A DNA stretch of 64,000 nt. Origin: a candidate division WOR-3 bacterium. Its GTDB lineage: Bacteria > Hydrothermota > UBA3072. Position numbers and translations under genes: made by a program. Below the pieces are notes generated by a model. It searched no databases. It saw nothing but the letters and a program-made list of their open reading frames with translations, and was not told where the DNA came from. The DNA is taken from assembly GCA_023131835.1 (NCBI GenBank), contig JAGLZA010000025.1, positions 5,923-69,922 on the forward strand, written 5' to 3'. Position 1 is the first letter of the stretch. Each line of letters begins with the position of its first letter. Positions 7,663-58,326 of the stretch are shown here, piece by piece.

Positions 7663-8713
7663 GATGTTTTTAAGAGTGTGGAGTATATAGTGGGTATTTA
7701 TTTCATTACTAATTTTCTGGTTGATAGATTAACAGACTCTAATGCTAACCTTTTGGCTCTTTTTCTCACGAATGGATCAATCCTCTCCCAATCCGTTTCA
7801 AATTCGTTTGACTTTAGTATCCAATCATGATTGTGTTTGAAGTAGCGTCTCGCGTGTTCTATCGTTGTATACGCTCCATTTACGTTATAGTGTATTCTAC
7901 TTACCTTCACTTTTTTACTTGCTTCCTTCCTATTTTTTGATATAACTTTTATAAAGTGTTCGTTACCTGTATCTCTTTCTATTATTCTTACCATGTATGT
8001 CGTCATGTTTTCTTACCTCTAATATAGTGTTTAATTTAGTAGTATATAAAGGTTTGAGGTTTTTGAGGATGGAAAGTATATAGTAAGTTACTTTTTCTTT
8101 TTTTACTAATCTCCTAAAGAACATGCACAAAACATTAATATATACATAGCAATAAGAAAAAGCCCCCAAAAACAAAGTAAATGAGCAATAGATTTCCTTC
8201 CTTTCCAATCTACCTTTTTAGGATCAAAATATTTATAACCATATATTGCAATAAAAATTAAAAATAATTCTATAAGTATTGTCACAACATAACAAATAAG
8301 AAGAACATCATCTTGAATATTATAAAGGAACTGGTCTGATATCATAAAAAAGACTAAAAGATTCACAGTTATAAGAGTTAAAATAATTGTAGAAGGGAAA
8401 AACACCAGATCTTCAATTAAATATAAAAACCAGCTTTGCAATTTATTTTCTTTATTTAATAATTCCATTTTTTAACCTCCTTTTATAATAATCTTTCTAC
8501 AATTTAGAAATAGAACAGCAATACTTGTGTAAAAAGAGAACCGCTATAGTGTTTATAATACAAAAAAGAAAAGAAAGAGATAACAATGATACACCACAAT
8601 AGATATGAAGATGTGTCACATAAATAAAAAAATAAGAAAAAAAGAATGCTATAACAAATATAATAATTAATGGAATAATAAATATAAATGCCACTATTAC
8701 ATCTTCTCTTTCT

Positions 8714-9066: not shown

Positions 9067-9096
9067 TACTTATATACTAGCACCATAAATACTTTT
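9067..9096 (-). promoter_or_regulatory. Recurrent 30-bp promoter module
   Basis: AAAAGTATTTATGGTGCTAGTATATAAGTA. Confidence 0.75.
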
Positions 9097-9700
9097 ACAA
9101 ACTACTTTTTAAAAATACTAAGCAAACAACAAACCCCGTCGTAATAAACACCATAAACGGTATCTCAGGTGTCACCCAGACATCCTCCGCTTTGTCCACT
9201 ACATCAAATCCTTGCTTACTAAACGCACCTGTTTTTGGATCGAACAGTAACCGTGAGAACTTAGGTACTACGTGCGGTTTGTACCCGATTAGAACCAGCC
9301 TACGACTCGCGTACGTTTCGTACCAACCTAGGTTACGTACGTTAGTAACGAACAAACCAATAGGTACGGATAACGCAAGCACAACCGCACAAACCAACAC
9401 ACTTAACGCGAAGAAAGGTACGGTGGTTAGGACTGCTGATATGCAAATTAACGCTTTGGTATCCGCACCTCCTATCAGGTTGTATACAAACATCAGGTAG
9501 GATAGTATGATGGTGACAACTAGGGATAGTACGTAAAGTAGGAAACCATCGTGATGATAGAAGGTGTAGACAGCGAAGAAGGGGGCGGTAGCAAGCATGA
9601 GTTTCCAGACGGTGTTGGATACTTCACGGGTTTTTAGGTCGGTGTAAGAGGCGTAGAGTAAGCAAAGTAGGGTGAAAGTTAGCTGGATAACAAATAACAT
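9095..9700 (-). CDS. A24-family prepilin/prearchaellin peptidase (FlaK/PibD-like)
   Basis: Multi-pass membrane protein with YASYTDLKTREV (first Asp) and IGGADTKAL (GxGD-type second Asp), plus the VWVTPEIPFMVFIT tail. Confidence 0.85.
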   Translation of the reverse strand: MLFVIQLTFTLLCLLYASYTDLKTREVSNTVWKLMLATAPFFAVYTFYHHDGFLLYVLSLVVTIILSYLMFVYNLIGGADTKALICISAVLTTVPFFALSVLVCAVVLALSVPIGLFVTNVRNLGWYETYASRRLVLIGYKPHVVPKFSRLLFDPKTGAFSKQGFDVVDKAEDVWVTPEIPFMVFITTGFVVCLVFLKSSL

Positions 9701-20609: not shown

Positions 20610-20864
20610 TCATTTCTTCTTTTTACCTAAATAGATTAGAAAGTAGCGACCGTTTTTGGTATTATTTTTAGGTATTCTATATACCGCTTTTTGTGTTTCT
20701 AATCTGCGTATACGTCTTAATACGGACTTTTGGGTTATCTTTAGTTTCTTTGATAGTTTTGCTGTTGTTGTAGGTGAACCAAGTGTTTTTATAGCGGTTA
20801 GAGTTTCGTTGTCGGTTTTTTGACGTCTAAATTTACCAACTATTTTATAAATGTTTCTTCTCAT
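20610..20864 (-). CDS. Winged-helix transcription regulator
   Basis: TTAKLSKKLKITQKSVLRRIRRLETQKAVYR. Confidence 0.65.
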   Translation of the reverse strand: MRRNIYKIVGKFRRQKTDNETLTAIKTLGSPTTTAKLSKKLKITQKSVLRRIRRLETQKAVYRIPKNNTKNGRYFLIYLGKKKK

Positions 20865-20886
20865 CTTATTTTTATGAATATAAAGA

Positions 20887-20904
20887 GAAGCCCAGTTGGG
20901 CTTC
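20887..20904. other. Perfect 8-bp hairpin closing the pentamer array
   Basis: GAAGCCCA-GT-TGGGCTTC. Confidence 0.6.
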
Positions 20905-20910
20905 CCCTTT

Positions 20911-21038
20911 TCCTTACCATATCCTACCGTACCTGACCTTATCGGACCGCACAGTACCCTACCTTACAGTACCTTATCTTACCATACCTTACCGAACCAG
21001 ACCCATCTATGAAATAGATGAGAATAAACTACTTAACT
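20911..21038. repeat. Degenerate pentamer array 1 (19 ACCNN-like units) plus 25-nt motif
   Basis: TCCTT ACCAT ATCCT ACCGT ACCTG ACCTT ... ACCGA ACCAG ACCCA in phase 20911-21005; ATAGATGAGAATAAACTACTTAACT at 21014-21038. Confidence 0.9.
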
Positions 21039-21702
21039 TTTTTTAATTCATCTGACATTCTTATCATATTCCCAAACTCAAAAAGCATAAAAACAAAAAT
21101 GACAGAAGCAAAACTAACCAATATTAGCCCTATTATCCCGACACTCTGGTAAAACAACTCCGGGTTGAACACTACCCTACCAAACAAACACATGTATCCG
21201 AGAAACAAAAAGATCGAAATTGATAGTGTGTATCCGAGTATGTGGAACATGTATGGTGTCTCTAAATCGGAAATTGAAAAAAGCAAAGCTATTGTTCCTA
21301 TTATTAATAAAAATAAAAAATACGTTAAAAACATTCTTTTTCACCTCCTAATCTTTTTGATACTCCTCACCAAAGGACATCTTTCTATGCATTATCTCCT
21401 CAAAATTCTTTGCAAACTCTCCTTCAACAATTGACTTCTCGGTAAGATGGTTACTTATGTCTATAAGTGATACTCCTTCGTCTCTAAGTGATTTCCCATT
21501 GTTTTTTATCCACCAATCTATAATTAACTCATCTAAAAAATAGAACATGTTCATTTTTCACCCTCCTGTTTTAACCTTTCAACTTTCAAAACTAATTTAT
21601 GACCACACTCGAGGTTCATCTCCATAAAACCTATTGTATTTATGTAGATATCCTTTACTCCTGTTAATCTCTTACAAATGTTACATCCTACTTCTATCTT
21701 TG

Positions 21703-35180: not shown

Positions 35181-35468
35181 CTAACTTAAATATTTTGGGT
35201 ATAAATCGTGATAAAGCTTATCTTTAAGTATTATTCCACCTCTTCTATCAGTATGATAACACTTAAAGAATGCGACATCAAGAATATCATCATAATTATA
35301 ATGATTTAGAAGTTTTGTTTTTAGATTGGATGACATATCCACATAAAGAGGTTGTTTTTTAAGGTTATATAAAACATAAACTCCAACAACATCAGGTATT
35401 AAAGAAATATTACGCTGACTCCAACTTCTAATATTCCATCGCTTAACAATTTGAACCATTTTTCTCAC
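35181..35468 (-). CDS. GIY-YIG-like domain protein
   Basis: GVYVLYN...PLYVDMSSNLKTKLLNH (YxG glycine replaced by Asp, conserved Arg replaced by Lys). Confidence 0.6.
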   Translation of the reverse strand: MRKMVQIVKRWNIRSWSQRNISLIPDVVGVYVLYNLKKQPLYVDMSSNLKTKLLNHYNYDDILDVAFFKCYHTDRRGGIILKDKLYHDLYPKYLS

Positions 35469-40810: not shown

Positions 40811-40868
40811 TTTTTCTTTTCCTCATAGTTGTTAGTAAAGAGAAAATTAATTCTCTCTACTATCAAAT

Positions 40869-40947
40869 TCCATACCTTACCCTACCATACCTCACCAAAC
40901 CACATCTTACTCACCTAATCATATAGATGAGAATAAACTACTTAACT
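40869..40947. repeat. Degenerate pentamer array 2 plus the same 25-nt motif
   Basis: ACCTT ACCCT ACCAT ACCTC ACCAA ACCAC ATCTT...; 40923-40947 is identical to 21014-21038. Confidence 0.85.
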
Positions 40948-44434: not shown

Positions 44435-44785
44435 CTAAGTCACCATCCCTATACTAAGTAAATTTATTCCTACTACGCATACATAAATACAATCACTCAC
44501 AAAAATCCCATTTATTGCTAATTTCTTTTCGTCTTTCTTCCATAGCGAGTAACATATTATTCCAACTATAACAATCGCTACCGCTTTTCCTAACCATAAA
44601 AGGTTGTAACTCATCAATACCGCAGCTAGAGGGTTTATCTCGTCTGCTCCTAATCCGACTTCGTATGCGATGGATGTAGTGACTATATCGAGTATTTGTA
44701 GGGTGATTATATCGAGTATTTGTAGGGTGATTAGAATTATAAAGAGTGTGATGAATATTTGTGTTGGTTTTTGTTTTTTATCCAT
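44435..44785 (-). CDS. DUF5658-like membrane protein
   Basis: LDIVTT...GADEINPL. Confidence 0.65.
   Translation of the reverse strand: MDKKQKPTQIFITLFIILITLQILDIITLQILDIVTTSIAYEVGLGADEINPLAAVLMSYNLLWLGKAVAIVIVGIICYSLWKKDEKKLAINGIFVSDCIYVCVVGINLLSIGMVT
44684..44731. repeat. Perfect in-frame 24-bp tandem duplication
   Basis: TATATCGAGTATTTGTAGGGTGAT twice; duplicates ITLQILDI. Confidence 0.95.
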
Positions 44786-53729: not shown

Positions 53730-54761
53730 TTATACCTCTAGTTTGGTCTGTACAACTTTATTCCTTATTTTAGGGAACCTTATCATGTTACTATACTTCC
53801 CATAGAAATTGTCTAACTCTTCTAAAAGTGCATCCTCTGTCATATCACCAAAATCAGGTTTCTGTTTGTAAATTAGTCCTTGTCTACCACCACCCCAATA
53901 ATCACAAACACTGCACGGCATAAACACCCTTTTACGTTCTGCAAGGAACTTCCTGACTATTTCAAAAGGTCTTGAAAACCAAATATCATGTAAACTATTT
54001 TCTGGGAATTTACCCAACACTAATTCCCTTGAAGCATCCAGACAACAGAGACCCACTGCACCATCGTGTCTGATAATTAATTCTCGATAAATCCTTGTGC
54101 AATTTTTCTTTGGTGGTTCTTTCGGAATTGTTACCATATGCTTACCAAACTTTACAGGTTTCTTAATGTTACCTGCATAATTCCATGCTGTTCGTATCAC
54201 GTGTCGTCCGCTTTGCGAACCCAGATTATCCATCAAAATTATCATCTTATGGTGGTTATTCTTGTATCCGTAGACTGGAAAGATCTCACCCTCGTCAATT
54301 TTCTTGTAGTAATCCCATACTGGTATATCATAATTACATAACTGGTTGTAATAATTCATTAGCTGGTCGTGTCCGTCATACGTATCAATTAGTAGTCTGT
54401 TTATACCATCATTAAAGTAGCTAGTTATTTTGTCGTACTTTAAATCGTAACTATGGTTGTTTCTTCGTAGAAGGTCACCATTGGTCGTTAGCGTTATTTG
54501 ACATTTCGGATAGTTATCTCTGATATTCATTATTATTTCGTGTAACTTTTTGTTTAGTAACGGTTCGCCAATCATAGCTAATTCTATACGTTTTCCTTTT
54601 CCATCGAACCATTTGTTTAAGTCGATAGCCATTAGTCTCGCTGTATCAGGATGCATGAATTTTACTGTCTTGTCTTCTTGATAAGTCCATGCGCAGAATT
54701 TACATTTTTTGTTACAACCCCAGGTCGGCTCTATCTGGACTGAATAAGGATTATTCGTCAT
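53730..54761 (-). CDS. Radical SAM enzyme with SPASM/twitch domain
   Basis: CNKKCKFC, GEPLL, TTNG, C-terminal CT...CC...CSVC; overlaps the amidoligase stop. Confidence 0.88.
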   Translation of the reverse strand: MTNNPYSVQIEPTWGCNKKCKFCAWTYQEDKTVKFMHPDTARLMAIDLNKWFDGKGKRIELAMIGEPLLNKKLHEIIMNIRDNYPKCQITLTTNGDLLRRNNHSYDLKYDKITSYFNDGINRLLIDTYDGHDQLMNYYNQLCNYDIPVWDYYKKIDEGEIFPVYGYKNNHHKMIILMDNLGSQSGRHVIRTAWNYAGNIKKPVKFGKHMVTIPKEPPKKNCTRIYRELIIRHDGAVGLCCLDASRELVLGKFPENSLHDIWFSRPFEIVRKFLAERKRVFMPCSVCDYWGGGRQGLIYKQKPDFGDMTEDALLEELDNFYGKYSNMIRFPKIRNKVVQTKLEV

Positions 54762-56133
54762 TTATCCATCTTCCTAAATTTACTTTACATGAATCTCCTT
54801 GCATCTCATTTAACTCCTTTACTATGTTTTGACAACAATCAAAAACCAAATCAACAACTTTCTTGTGCATCTCGATACCTTTGAAAAAATGAGGATCAGG
54901 TATTTTTCCGATGCTGTTACTACTATATTTAACAATAGGAACATATTTTGGATTTTTGCCAAATTGCTCATTCAATCGTTTATAGTTGGCATTATCCATA
55001 TAGAAGATAACATCAGCCCAATTGATTATGTCGGTAGTAAGGAATTTCGAACGGATTTCAAAGTAGTCAAATCCCTTTTCTTCCAATGCCTGTATCATCC
55101 TCTTACTGGTAATTAATCCACCATTTTTATCACTTAAACATGCAGAATCTATATTAATAAGGTTATTGAGGTGTTCCATAATGACTTGACAAGCTGGTGA
55201 TCTGTTTATGTTGCCCACACAGACAAATAAGATGTTATGATATTTTATGAGTTTTTTAAGTTCTTCTTTGACTTTTTCTCTTGAATTTTTATCGAGATTT
55301 GTCTTTTTAAATAAGGTATGTAATCCGTGGTCGTATTTTACAGGGGTAGGAAATGATAAGTTAGGATATTCCGCTATTATATCCTTTGGTCTTTTTTGAC
55401 TATTTAAAGCACTATCCATAAATTCTCTACACCATATAAAACAACTTCTTATCTCATCCAAATTTAACGTTTGATAAAAATGTCTAAATTCCACTGTTTT
55501 AGTTTCTTGTAATTGACGTAGGTTTATTCCTGGACGAGGTGCTATGAACCATGAACGATTACCATATTTGTCTTGTGGTGCATGTGCCAGAAAAAAACCT
55601 TTGATGGTCGTAGCATTAAGAGCTTCAGTCACCCTATCCTTTGGCAACATTTGCTGGTGACTAACTTTGTTACGTTGTAACCTTTTTTTTGCACCTTTGT
55701 ATGCTTCTTCGTTTTCAAAATCCTGACGTTTCACTATTGGTAAGTTATCAGCTATTTCAAATGCCTCTCTACCGTATTTATCAATATATCGTAAGAGTTT
55801 TTTACATGCTTCTATGTCTTCATCCAAGCCAGGAACACCAATATGAATATGTAGATTGCATTTGTAATTAATGGTAGGTCTTGGATACAACAACCCATTT
55901 ATCTCTTTTATTACTTCTACTTGTTCATCGATAGTATTGGTTGGTCTGGTATTAATTTCGCCACCAAATTTCCATAGTTCCCCTTTTGGATCGTTAGCAA
56001 TACCATTTGAATTTACGATACTATAATCTCTTTCGTTCCATTTACATCCTTCTGGTAGTTTGTTGAAACGATACACATCAGCGTATTCGAGTTCAGCACC
56101 ATATGTAAAATCCTTAGATGAATATTTTTTCAT
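54751..56133 (-). CDS. Amidoligase (COOH-NH2 ligase) fused to an LMW phosphatase domain
   Basis: YGAELEY, GEIN, CNLHIHIG, INL, TVEFRH; then ILFVCVGNINRSP...IPDPH. Confidence 0.8.
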   Translation of the reverse strand: MKKYSSKDFTYGAELEYADVYRFNKLPEGCKWNERDYSIVNSNGIANDPKGELWKFGGEINTRPTNTIDEQVEVIKEINGLLYPRPTINYKCNLHIHIGVPGLDEDIEACKKLLRYIDKYGREAFEIADNLPIVKRQDFENEEAYKGAKKRLQRNKVSHQQMLPKDRVTEALNATTIKGFFLAHAPQDKYGNRSWFIAPRPGINLRQLQETKTVEFRHFYQTLNLDEIRSCFIWCREFMDSALNSQKRPKDIIAEYPNLSFPTPVKYDHGLHTLFKKTNLDKNSREKVKEELKKLIKYHNILFVCVGNINRSPACQVIMEHLNNLINIDSACLSDKNGGLITSKRMIQALEEKGFDYFEIRSKFLTTDIINWADVIFYMDNANYKRLNEQFGKNPKYVPIVKYSSNSIGKIPDPHFFKGIEMHKKVVDLVFDCCQNIVKELNEMQGDSCKVNLGRWINDE

Positions 56134-56141
56134 TTTTGTTC

Positions 56142-56221
56142 CTCATAGACATTTCTTCCATAAATAATGTTTAGGTATTGGTGGCTCCTGCTCAAAAATA
56201 TAATTCTTTATAACATTCATA
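56142..56221 (-). pseudogene. Relic copy of the 3-prime end of the amino acid:DNA transferase gene
   Basis: 56171-56196 matches 56683-56708 at 23/26 nt (FEQEPPIPK versus FEEEPPIPK); 56142-56155 matches 56634-56647. Confidence 0.65.
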
Positions 56222-56550
56222 ACAAATTAATATTAAACTCAAAAAAAGAAAAACCCACTCATCCTCAAAATTTTATTTAAGTGAAAAATATCTTTTTTGA
56301 AGATGATGATTTTTTAAAAATACTCATCTATATATTTTTATTTATATTTTTACTTTTGTTAGAGATCATTGATTTGCATCTGTAATTTTTATGTAATCAG
56401 GTGCATCAAACATTATTTCACCTCCTCTAACTTGCCTTATTATTGAATTTACAGTTTCACCTTCATCCATACGCCATTTTTGTCCAAACCAAACAACAAT
56501 AGACTTTCCTTTTGTCATAGTTTTCACCTCCTAATTTAAACTTGTAATAT

Positions 56551-56580
56551 TACTTATATACTACCACTATAAATACTTTT
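56551..56580 (-). promoter_or_regulatory. Recurrent 30-bp promoter module
   Basis: AAAAGTATTTATAGTGGTAGTATATAAGTA. Confidence 0.75.
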
Positions 56581-56612
56581 AAGTTTACTGAAAAACTCAC
56601 TATGTTACCAGA

Positions 56613-57689
56613 CTACACTACCAACATATTACTCTCATACACATTTCCAATAGATGGAAAACTTACCTTCCTCGAATATTGCTTAGGTATTGGCGGTTCC
56701 TCCTCAAAGAAACCCACCAACCTACCTGTATCCTTAAATATGTTCATCCTTTCTTTTCGTATACCTTTCCAACCGTTCAGCTCACCCAAGAACCATGGAT
56801 CGAAGAACTCACTGCGAAAATCCCAAAGTAGAGACCATTCGACTCCGTCCTTTATGTTAGATTCCATAGTATTTAGTTCTTCTAATTGTCTATCAATATA
56901 ATACGGAAAATACCGAGTGGACCAAAATAATTTTTTTAGGGAACATAATGCAGTCTCTATGTTCCAAAAAGTAATATTAAGCTCTGGATTTTCTTCTTGT
57001 AATTCTTTTTTTAGTTGTAAAAGTTTATCTTGGAGCAAATCATAATTTATAGGTGTTTTTGGTTTTTTGTGATGTAGAGTAATCATATCGTCCAATCCAC
57101 ACCCATAGCAAAGCCCATTCCTACAACTCTCTGCCTCTCTTAAATTAAGTCCAGTAGGTCTAAGTTCCAAATCAGTTATTTCGTTTAAAGATTCCAAATA
57201 ATTAAATAAAGTAAACCTACCAAAATAGTATATCTTCGATGTCTCCCTATAAACTTCGTTATACCTCTGTTCTAAGTTTTTTGTGCTCTTAAACTTCCTG
57301 AAAAACTCAACTTGGCTATCACCTACCAACTCGTGGTAACTCACATATGAAGGAACAAATTTATCAAAATTCTTAACCTTTGCTCTATCACTTTGAAATA
57401 GAATCTTACTTTTGTTTGCTCTCCACCACCTTTCCATTCTCTGAACATTCACATTCTCTGCATCAGGAAATTCATTAAATATATAGTAAGCAGATGGTGC
57501 ACAATATGTCAAAGAGTAGAGATAAGCAAGCCAGTACCTTTGCTCTAGATTTAACTCCAATCTGTCACAAATGTAATTTAAGCATGGATATGAAGGATCA
57601 CACTCGTTGTTGTAAATCATTCTTGCTATGTAATCCTTCATCCCATCCCATCGCTCTTTGGTATAGTTTTTGATATTATAGTCCTTCAT
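56613..57689 (-). CDS. Amino acid:DNA transferase (aGPT-pyrophosphorylase family)-like hypermodification enzyme
   Basis: ECDPSY...QRYWLAYLYSLTY...FGRFTLFNYLE...NIETALCSLKK...RYFPYYIDRQLEE, plus its gene neighbourhood. Confidence 0.68.
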   Translation of the reverse strand: MKDYNIKNYTKERWDGMKDYIARMIYNNECDPSYPCLNYICDRLELNLEQRYWLAYLYSLTYCAPSAYYIFNEFPDAENVNVQRMERWWRANKSKILFQSDRAKVKNFDKFVPSYVSYHELVGDSQVEFFRKFKSTKNLEQRYNEVYRETSKIYYFGRFTLFNYLESLNEITDLELRPTGLNLREAESCRNGLCYGCGLDDMITLHHKKPKTPINYDLLQDKLLQLKKELQEENPELNITFWNIETALCSLKKLFWSTRYFPYYIDRQLEELNTMESNIKDGVEWSLLWDFRSEFFDPWFLGELNGWKGIRKERMNIFKDTGRLVGFFEEEPPIPKQYSRKVSFPSIGNVYESNMLVV

Positions 57690-58326
57690 TTAAACCCACC
57701 ATTTTAAATTGTTTAATAGTCTCAGCTTCCTTCCATGCACCACCTGCACGTTTTATCGTATCGAGTGTTGAAACTAAAAACAGTGCCTTATCCTTAAAGT
57801 TAAACTTATAAAGTGGTCTTTTGTTATTCCGTAACCCATAAATTTTATTGTCTAATAGTAGTGTAGCTGAAAAGCTACATTCCTTTTGACTCTTAAGAAA
57901 ATCAACTAAATTAATACCCTGTTCAATTTTTCTTAGGAACACCTCTGCATCGTTATCACAATTACATACAACATTAAAATCTTTTTGGAACTCCTCCATC
58001 TTTTTCATACTTAAAACGCCATTCATAGCAATCGCACCCACACCATCCACCACAATCGGCTGGTTATTTTTCATGTCGTGCCAATCACCACTTGTGCTGT
58101 AGCGATTATGGTAGATAAAACAGTCGCTACCGCTTTGGACAAAAGCATCGACGAGTTCGTCGGGATTTAACTCGAAACTTTTAGTTACTTCGATTGAGTG
58201 GTTGTTGTAATAAGCTATGCCAAATGAATGACATCCACGTATTTTGAGTTCTGTTATTAGTTTCTTTGTGAAGGTGAGTGTTTCGGGGTCTTTGTTAAGA
58301 AAGTAAGCTCCTAATATACCGCACAT
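57676..58326 (-). CDS. Class II (Ntn) glutamine amidotransferase
   Basis: MCGILG start, RG, HNRYSTSG, NQPI, NG, NDAEVF. Confidence 0.88.
   Translation of the reverse strand: MCGILGAYFLNKDPETLTFTKKLITELKIRGCHSFGIAYYNNHSIEVTKSFELNPDELVDAFVQSGSDCFIYHNRYSTSGDWHDMKNNQPIVVDGVGAIAMNGVLSMKKMEEFQKDFNVVCNCDNDAEVFLRKIEQGINLVDFLKSQKECSFSATLLLDNKIYGLRNNKRPLYKFNFKDKALFLVSTLDTIKRAGGAWKEAETIKQFKMVGLNEGL

Follow-up and report, generated by a model that had tools for sequence, protein, structure and literature searches.

Candidate VIPR-type guide RNA genes dispersed in the genome of an uncultured cold-seep virus

The stretch of DNA analysed here, 64,000 nt in length (the window), contains a short region between two genes in which a pentanucleotide recurs nineteen times in phase, a nearly fixed GGT followed by two variable letters (GGTNN). 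What does such an array specify? A first-pass annotation of the letters had concluded that no standard feature class explained it, which was true until two 2026 preprints described the guide RNAs (vrRNAs) of VIPR systems. We find that the two arrays of the window, together with a third on the same scaffold, are very probably genes for VIPR-type guide RNAs, and the identification of the loci as vrRNA-type cassettes is strong. We infer the rest, namely transcription, the RNA ends, binding by a distant or in-trans Vipr protein and the outcome at the targets of the window cassettes.

The window is part of a 180,060-bp cold-seep viral scaffold (window position + 63,244 = record position). It has a G+C content of 34% and carries nearly all of its genes on the minus strand, among them a family B DNA polymerase (PolB), a Dam-type methylase, thymidine-hypermodification enzymes and radical-SAM proteins. 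The region found no nucleotide match in 50,697 phage records by megablast or blastn. A search of the whole window against Rfam returned no family at the gathering threshold, and a DABA-DC-AT hit, seen when the region was searched with E up to 1, was discarded as a chance match of 15 bits. The tRNA search found none. The host of the virus is probably an archaeon, as hinted by a PolB nearest to those of haloarchaeal viruses, by an archaeal-type prepilin peptidase (Peptidase_A24 and Arc_PepC_II; window 9095-9700) and by a virus-encoded AglB/STT3 oligosaccharyltransferase gene in the scaffold flank (L128 14724-17135). The virus probably carries modified thymidines. A DNA hypermodification gene cluster at 53730-58326 includes genes for a radical SAM/SPASM protein (53730-54761), an LMW phosphatase-domain protein (54751-56133) and an amino acid:DNA transferase/aGPT-pyrophosphorylase-like protein (56613-57689). 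Elsewhere, a near-perfect 24-nt tandem repeat of 2.3 copies (GTGATTATATCGAGTATTTGTAGG) is found at 44679-44733.

Anatomy of the three cassettes

Cassette 1 occupies 20880..21038 on the minus strand, flanked by ORF 21029-21334 and ORF 20610-20864, and every element of the first-pass annotation (stop codon, 25-mer, hairpin, 19 pentamers and GC hairpin) was recovered in place on that strand. It opens with the 25-nt leader AGTTAAGTAGTTTATTCTCATCTAT (21038-21014), which contains the TAG stop of the upstream ORF 21029-21334 and, within it, TAGTTTAYTCTCATC, a stretch common to the solo cassettes of relatives. The end of the leader enters a 5' hairpin, CATCTAT-TTC-ATAGATG (21020-21004), which in the predicted fold may lengthen to CTCATCTAT/ATAGATGGG, thereby reaching the array's first GG. 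Guide array 1 (21003-20909) consists of 19 in-phase pentamers, with 14 GGT, 3 GAT and 2 TGT triplets, and its last unit is GGAAA; its NN pairs read CT TC AA AT AA AA AC AA AG AC GC CC AA CA AC AG AT AA (AA). A GC hairpin, GAAGCCCA-ACT-GGGCTTC (20904-20887), and then TCTCTTTAT follow. In the RNA fold this part forms a 3' hairpin, GGGGAAGCCCA-ACU-GGGCUUCUCU, with a U-rich run (20880..20908), which could be either a terminator or a tail.

The regularity of the array is far above chance. The pattern GGTNNGGTNNGGTNNGGT, with at most two mismatches allowed, matched 28 times against 1.6 expected, a count that none of 100 shuffles reached, and Tandem Repeats Finder placed a period-5 array at 20912-20993. 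The region is non-coding, as the first-pass annotation had held: no real open reading frame covers the array, and the only one is a TTG-initiated ORF of 38 aa on the plus strand. The array is unlike a CRISPR array, in which unique spacers separate direct repeats of 23-50 nt and cas genes are usually close by: its repeat unit is 5 nt, spacers are lacking, and no cas-like genes were found among the annotated ORFs of the window. No sigma-70-like promoter was found in the leader. An archaeal TATA-like reading of TTTATT in the leader was dropped, since a cassette that follows vipr in the related contig L136 is without that part.

Two further cassettes were found. The 25-mer AGTTAAGTAGTTTATTCTCATCTAT has 2 exact copies in the window against 0 expected, and the second copy (40947-40923), which the first-pass annotation had missed, heads a shorter array ~20 kb from the first. 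This cassette 2 (40835..40947, minus strand) has a 5' hairpin, CTCATCTA-TATGAT-TAGGTGAG (40931-40910), an array of 8 units running from GATGT to GGAAT (40906-40867) and a 3' hairpin, AGAGAGAA-TTAA-TTTTCTCT (40858-40839). Cassette 3 was found by reading 10 kb past each window edge. It lies ~8 kb past the right edge on the same scaffold (L131 1205-1390), with the leader TATTACTCTCATCTATATGATTAGGTGAGTAA, the same hairpin as cassette 2, an array of 20 GGTNN units (L131 1246-1345) and a 3' hairpin, AAGAGGTTGTT/AACAACCTCTT.

Comparison of cassettes revealed which parts are held constant. Pairing in the 5' hairpin amounts to 97% over 9 cassettes and drops to 31-40% once the partner columns are displaced, and one UA-to-AU change is compensatory. 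Across related viruses the conserved part is this hairpin and not the whole 25-mer, a distinction that had also gone unnoticed. The 3' hairpin is always present, with a variable sequence (cassettes 1 and 2 and the relative L138). The arrays of cassettes 1 and 2 have 19 and 8 tandem in-phase GGYNN units, where a vrRNA has at least 4. Entropy per position is 0.25/0.66/0.47 bits for GGT and 1.64/1.81 bits for NN, and the T of the triplet is conserved to the same degree as its Gs. GGY is conserved, whereas NN is hypervariable, including between close relatives.

The exact 25-mer had no match in IMG/VR. In cold-seep metagenomes, the leader of cassette 2 (window 40910-40942) is covered at a depth of 3-5x that of its flanks, and the contigs that run out of it continue in a wide range of GGYNN arrays. 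Thus, the leader is a multi-copy constant part to which numerous guides are joined across this viral community.

Relatives with the same leader, and the search for vipr

VIPR systems are the subject of two bioRxiv 2026 preprints from the Doudna lab (10.64898/2026.04.26.720920, 10.64898/2026.04.26.720927), which describe them mostly from Vipr-centred loci of cultured phages and prophages. According to the preprints, the phage-encoded vrRNA carries a structured cap and 9-16 repeats of YNNGG, in which GGY is fixed and NN varies; it is a discrete small RNA of ~100 nt that copurifies with Vipr. Vipr, a ~20-kDa RAMP protein, polymerises on the vrRNA (10.64898/2026.04.26.720920, 10.64898/2026.04.26.720927), with one protomer per repeat sequestering GGY (10.64898/2026.04.26.720927). 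The NN pairs read double-stranded DNA, one target base is skipped per unit, the wobble base of the codon, and the usual result is that competing phages or satellites are silenced. Seven types are described there, and type II includes Escherichia phage SUSP1 and a P. fulva prophage (10.64898/2026.04.26.720920, 10.64898/2026.04.26.720927).

To place the cassettes among such loci, we scanned IMG/VR blindly for (GGTNN)5GGT and obtained at least 119 loci, many of which are degenerate, intergenic, multi-copy arrays with genome-specific flanks. The SUSP1 locus was located in its GenBank record, and its Vipr served as the query for homologs. Among the listed array loci, at least 30 have a SUSP1 Vipr homolog within the retrieved sequence. 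Where the layout was read, which was for SUSP1, L136 and L140, Vipr adjoins the arrays. The association of array and Vipr is thereby recovered independently of the pipeline of the preprint authors. Neighbors of Dam methylases in IMG/VR (L005-L007) contained no arrays. Several IMG/VR contigs (L012, L017, L025, L028, L093, L097 and others) carry a conserved GGTTAGGTTAGGTAAGGTTAGGTTAGGTAAGGA in long ORFs, beside iteron-like ATGTATCCAAAATGGATACA repeats; this stretch has a period of 15 and apparently codes for protein (VRLGK), and a relation to vrRNAs is improbable.

Related cold-seep contigs were found through homologs of the 101-aa protein encoded upstream of cassette 1. In L134, L135, L136 and L137, and likewise in metagenome contigs, the two flanking genes abut and cassette 1 is absent, indicating that cassette 1 is an insertion. 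L138 has the cassette with one unit deleted and three added relative to the window, its 3' stem being kept by a compensatory A-T to G-C change, and L139 has the cassette with a different array of 10 units. Metagenome contigs likewise show the same leader with different NN and with indels of whole units. Two other features of these contigs deserve mention. Downstream of the cassette in L139 (~850-1070), a stretch of ~220-270 nt that appears G+C-richer by eye splits the start of an 84-aa winged-helix gene, a possible intron or mobile RNA element. IS200/IS605 elements lie in L134 (4555-5676) and L135 (1425-3116), with a TnpB-like OrfB and, in L135, a Y1 TnpA; they are absent between the corresponding genes of the window virus in this region.

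PolB, DCD, DUF192 and the 101-aa protein occur in both L136 and the window, and L136 encodes a Vipr homolog at 7714-8247 (E = 3.7e-38). A thumb arginine and the G-loop D-F-R-P of this protein align with R138, D177, W178 and R179 of SUSP1 Vipr. Two vrRNAs stand directly after the gene, with leaders of the type YTCTCATC-hairpin-GATGAGTAA; these leaders, TTCTCATCTTTTTCAGATGAGTAA and TAGTTTACTCTCATCAATCATTTGATGAGTCA, and that of the window are members of one family. The first of the two follows the vipr stop directly and keeps only the hairpin of the leader, which suggests that the 5' hairpin is more likely a part of the RNA (a handle or processing site) than a promoter. Vipr also stands beside same-leader arrays in L140 and in 6 of 17 metagenome loci. 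The search of metagenomes for motif, array and neighbors that the first-pass annotation had recommended proved to be the decisive check. The other same-leader loci that have several kb of flank contain no Vipr, and L191, L198 and L212 are such solo cassettes. The two vrRNAs of L136 are separated by a gene for a DUF559/MTES_1575 (Vsr-like) endonuclease (8363-8650), and in one relative the same nuclease is fused to Vipr (P0146, 253 aa). These sequences hint at a nuclease-armed VIPR type in the L136 clade. Homologs of the RHH and DUF559 genes of L136 are absent from the window.

No vipr gene was found near the window cassettes. Profile HMMs of Vipr (built from 27 and 147 sequences), phmmer with SUSP1 Vipr, tblastn with L136 Vipr and a search for the G-loop motif all gave no match in the 64-kb window and ~10 kb on each side, which together make up 84 kb of the 180-kb scaffold. 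The slot between DUF192 and DCD, where the VIPR locus is sited in L136, is empty in the window virus, and 0 of 32 close homologs of L136 Vipr are recorded on a 180,060-bp contig. These results would be expected if the cassettes were relics, that is, guides left over from a VIPR locus after the loss of vipr and no longer used. We consider this unlikely. The three cassettes keep a near-fixed GGT and intact 5' and 3' hairpins, and the tail has changed in a compensatory manner; the guides of near-identical relatives differ by whole units, and solo cassettes without a Vipr within several kb recur, a pattern that looks maintained. Furthermore, 96 kb of the 180-kb genome remain beyond the 84 kb searched.

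Guide matches under the one-base-skip rule

If the arrays are vrRNA genes, their NN pairs should spell genes when every third target base is skipped. The clearest case comes from L136, where the guide next to its Vipr matches the DUF192 gene of the window (23893-24216, minus strand) at 23912-23944 (-) in 22/22 NN positions, which fall on codon positions 1-2. The same guide scores 16-17/22 on the window with skips of 0, 2 or 3, and the best shuffled guide reached 20. It matches L134 at 22/22 and L137 at 21/22, compared to only 16/22 on its own DUF192 allele, in the gene that flanks its VIPR locus. Its own allele also differs in amino acids, VKNIKGFLEMK against VEGVKEFLEVK. By these sequence matches, the one-base-skip code holds in this viral family.

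Guide 1 gives a similar, weaker picture. Its best match in its own genome is 26/36 (72%) at 21074..21127 (+), a score reached by 2 of 300 shuffled guides. This site corresponds to codons 70-87 of the adjacent ORF 21029-21334 (-), ~70 nt away, with the skipped base on the wobble position. At the homologous site of relatives without the cassette, guide 1 matches L134 at 30/36 (83%), L137 at 29/36 (81%), L135 at 27/36 and L136 at 25/36, while all three carriers stand at 26/36 (72%). The match is modest and mixed, its best value of 83% being just over 80% and the four cassette-less relatives spanning 69-83%. The carrier allele reads LILVSFASVIF, most others are of the CFGAV- or CLGA-type, and these residues are closer to what guide 1 spells; closest is the CFGAVL of the L134 allele, LILVCFGAVLF. 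The 10-unit core of the guide 1 target was not found in IMG/VR.

Guide 3 matches the first 20 codons of the adjacent downstream gene, including its start codon, at 31/40 (78%), a score that 0 of 300 shuffles attained. An identification of this gene as the N-terminus of PolB was dropped for want of Pfam support. Guide 2 (8 units) is too short for a target to be called. Its best match genome-wide (15/18 at 35264-35290) is not above background, and neither is its match by hand to codons 10-18 of the downstream metallopeptidase gene (13/18). Variant alleles in metagenomes did not match guide 2 clearly better, and no relatives of the metallopeptidase gene were found in IMG/VR.

The preprints set the target threshold at 80% NN and report that self matches of natural guides stay below it and that perturbing the NN pairing abolished silencing (10.64898/2026.04.26.720920, 10.64898/2026.04.26.720927). 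The window virus conforms to this pattern: guide 1 exceeds 80% with wobble skip on other mobile elements (L134 and L137) and its best self match is 72%, that of guide 3 being 78%.

These self matches could be taken to mean that the guides tune the carrier's own neighboring gene in cis, with a partial pairing of 72-78% NN. Within the carrier genome, guides 1 and 3 do find their best matches in adjacent genes, and that of guide 3 spans the start codon. We nonetheless regard such self-regulation as improbable, given the published dependence on NN pairing and the lack of self matches at the threshold among natural guides, the preference of the L136 guide for rival alleles (21-22/22) over its own (16/22), and the better score of guide 1 on two cassette-less relatives than on its own genome.

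The NN matches also bear on the older readings of the array. A ring-shaped protein of the TRAP kind, a suggestion of the first-pass annotation, would bind GGU and control termination or translation of the flanking genes, or else be titrated by the array. The 5-nt period, the fixed triplet, the 2-nt spacer and the terminator-like hairpin after the array all suit such a protein, and the idea of a protein oligomer leaving a 5-nt footprint on a fixed triplet survives in our interpretation; the oligomer would be a helical RAMP filament that guides DNA recognition and not a ring on an mRNA leader. TRAP sites in the B. subtilis system are expected to be GAG/UAG, spaced by 2-3 nt, whereas the triplets here are GGU/GAU/UGU. 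Far from being spacers, the two variable letters are the part that carries information, with gene matches of 22/22 and 30/36 under the one-base skip. The same leader stands beside Vipr genes in relatives, and the cassette is an indel between two unrelated genes, not the leader of a regulated operon. A ring protein, whether TRAP-like or of another kind, is therefore most improbable as an explanation. Equally improbable are readings of the array as structural or neutral DNA, be it a two-tier G-quadruplex, a signal for replication or packaging, or a pentanucleotide microsatellite in decay. The regular spacing of GG would permit two-tier quadruplexes, and other viral contigs do have pure (GGTAT)n and (GGTCG)n microsatellites. 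A quadruplex, however, accounts for neither the fixed T nor the gene matches, and NN spells codons of specific genes in place of decay from one unit; whole-unit indels, the swapping of arrays between relatives and the conserved flanking hairpins point the same way.

A model for the cassettes and its relation to known systems

Taken together, the cassettes are best read as genes for VIPR-type guide RNAs, and the following model is built on analogy with SUSP1. Each cassette would give rise to an RNA of ~100-150 nt with a 5' hairpin, (GGUNN)n and a 3' hairpin. Vipr protomers, one per unit, would coat the repeats, hiding GGU and presenting NN, and the NN letters would base-pair with a double-stranded DNA target, leaving out one base in three. 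Vipr itself may be encoded elsewhere in the 180-kb genome or be supplied in trans. Each guide would lie next to a gene and spell the alleles that rival relatives have of it, and the carrier would escape through amino-acid-changing substitutions that bring its own allele below the match level at which targets are called. The effect on a co-infecting relative would be silencing; cutting is possible where the locus has a DUF559-type nuclease, as suggested for the L136 clade by the nuclease between its vrRNAs and the fusion in P0146.

Several features of these loci are unusual: the cassettes are solo and dispersed, they have a 5' hairpin, the arrays reach 20 units, and guides sit beside the gene that they match in rivals. 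The available text of the VIPR preprints contains no mention of a layout that places the guide next to the matched allele (10.64898/2026.04.26.720920, 10.64898/2026.04.26.720927). We propose, tentatively and at less than even odds, that these are guide-only modules, in which guide and resistant allele are co-inherited as a linked pair of killer plus immune allele and spread among relatives by recombination. Such modules may rely on a distant Vipr or on one from a co-infecting relative.

The findings suggest that VIPR operates in a cold-seep virus of 180 kb that is uncultured and probably infects archaea. They make a natural conflict between viruses readable in the sequence, in that the L136 guide matches the window completely and guide 1 fits two cassette-less relatives best. 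They also suggest a rule whereby the guide adjoins the gene that it polices and the carrier escapes by amino-acid changes that wobble-skipping cannot ignore. Since guides can sit far from any vipr, surveys anchored on Vipr would overlook them; the hairpin leader followed by GGYNN units is a sufficient handle with which to search for more.

In comparison with known systems, the cassettes are closest to VIPR type II. Both consist of GGY/NN pentamers in short non-coding cassettes of viral genomes, with a one-base skip on the wobble position, targets in competing relatives and no self match of 80% or more, and a Vipr homolog with a conserved G-loop is encoded by relatives that have the leader. Unlike type II loci, the window cassettes are solo, dispersed and without vipr in 84 kb, not clustered around it. 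The preprints give type II an invariant 3' tail with a pseudoknot and VIPR arrays 9-16 units, whereas the window family has a conserved 5' hairpin cap (YTCTCATC...GATGAG), a variable 3' hairpin and arrays of up to 19-20 units. A further difference is that the guides here adjoin a gene with matched rival alleles, in a virus whose host is probably archaeal.

The likeness to the crRNA and Cas7 of Class 1 CRISPR systems lies in a RAMP-fold polymer on a guide RNA with bases flipped out at a fixed period, in a structured handle that caps the variable part, and in a role in defence or competition between genetic elements. A repeat-spacer array, Cas1/Cas2 and a contiguous spacer are all lacking here; the information resides in 2 of every 5 nt, and each guide has its own small cassette. 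TRAP and the (G/U)AG repeats of the trp leader of Bacillus share an oligomer that reads a fixed triplet every 5-6 nt of single-stranded RNA. In TRAP, 11-12 subunits form a closed ring around which mRNA is wrapped for attenuation, with spacers devoid of information, in contrast to the GGU triplet, the gene-matching spacers and the associated RAMP protein family seen here. Finally, the cassettes recall marker exclusion by phage homing endonucleases (Seg and Mob of T-even phages), where a small insert beside a gene acts on the allele of a co-infecting phage while the carrier is resistant; specificity here would come from a predicted RNA guide and not from a protein.
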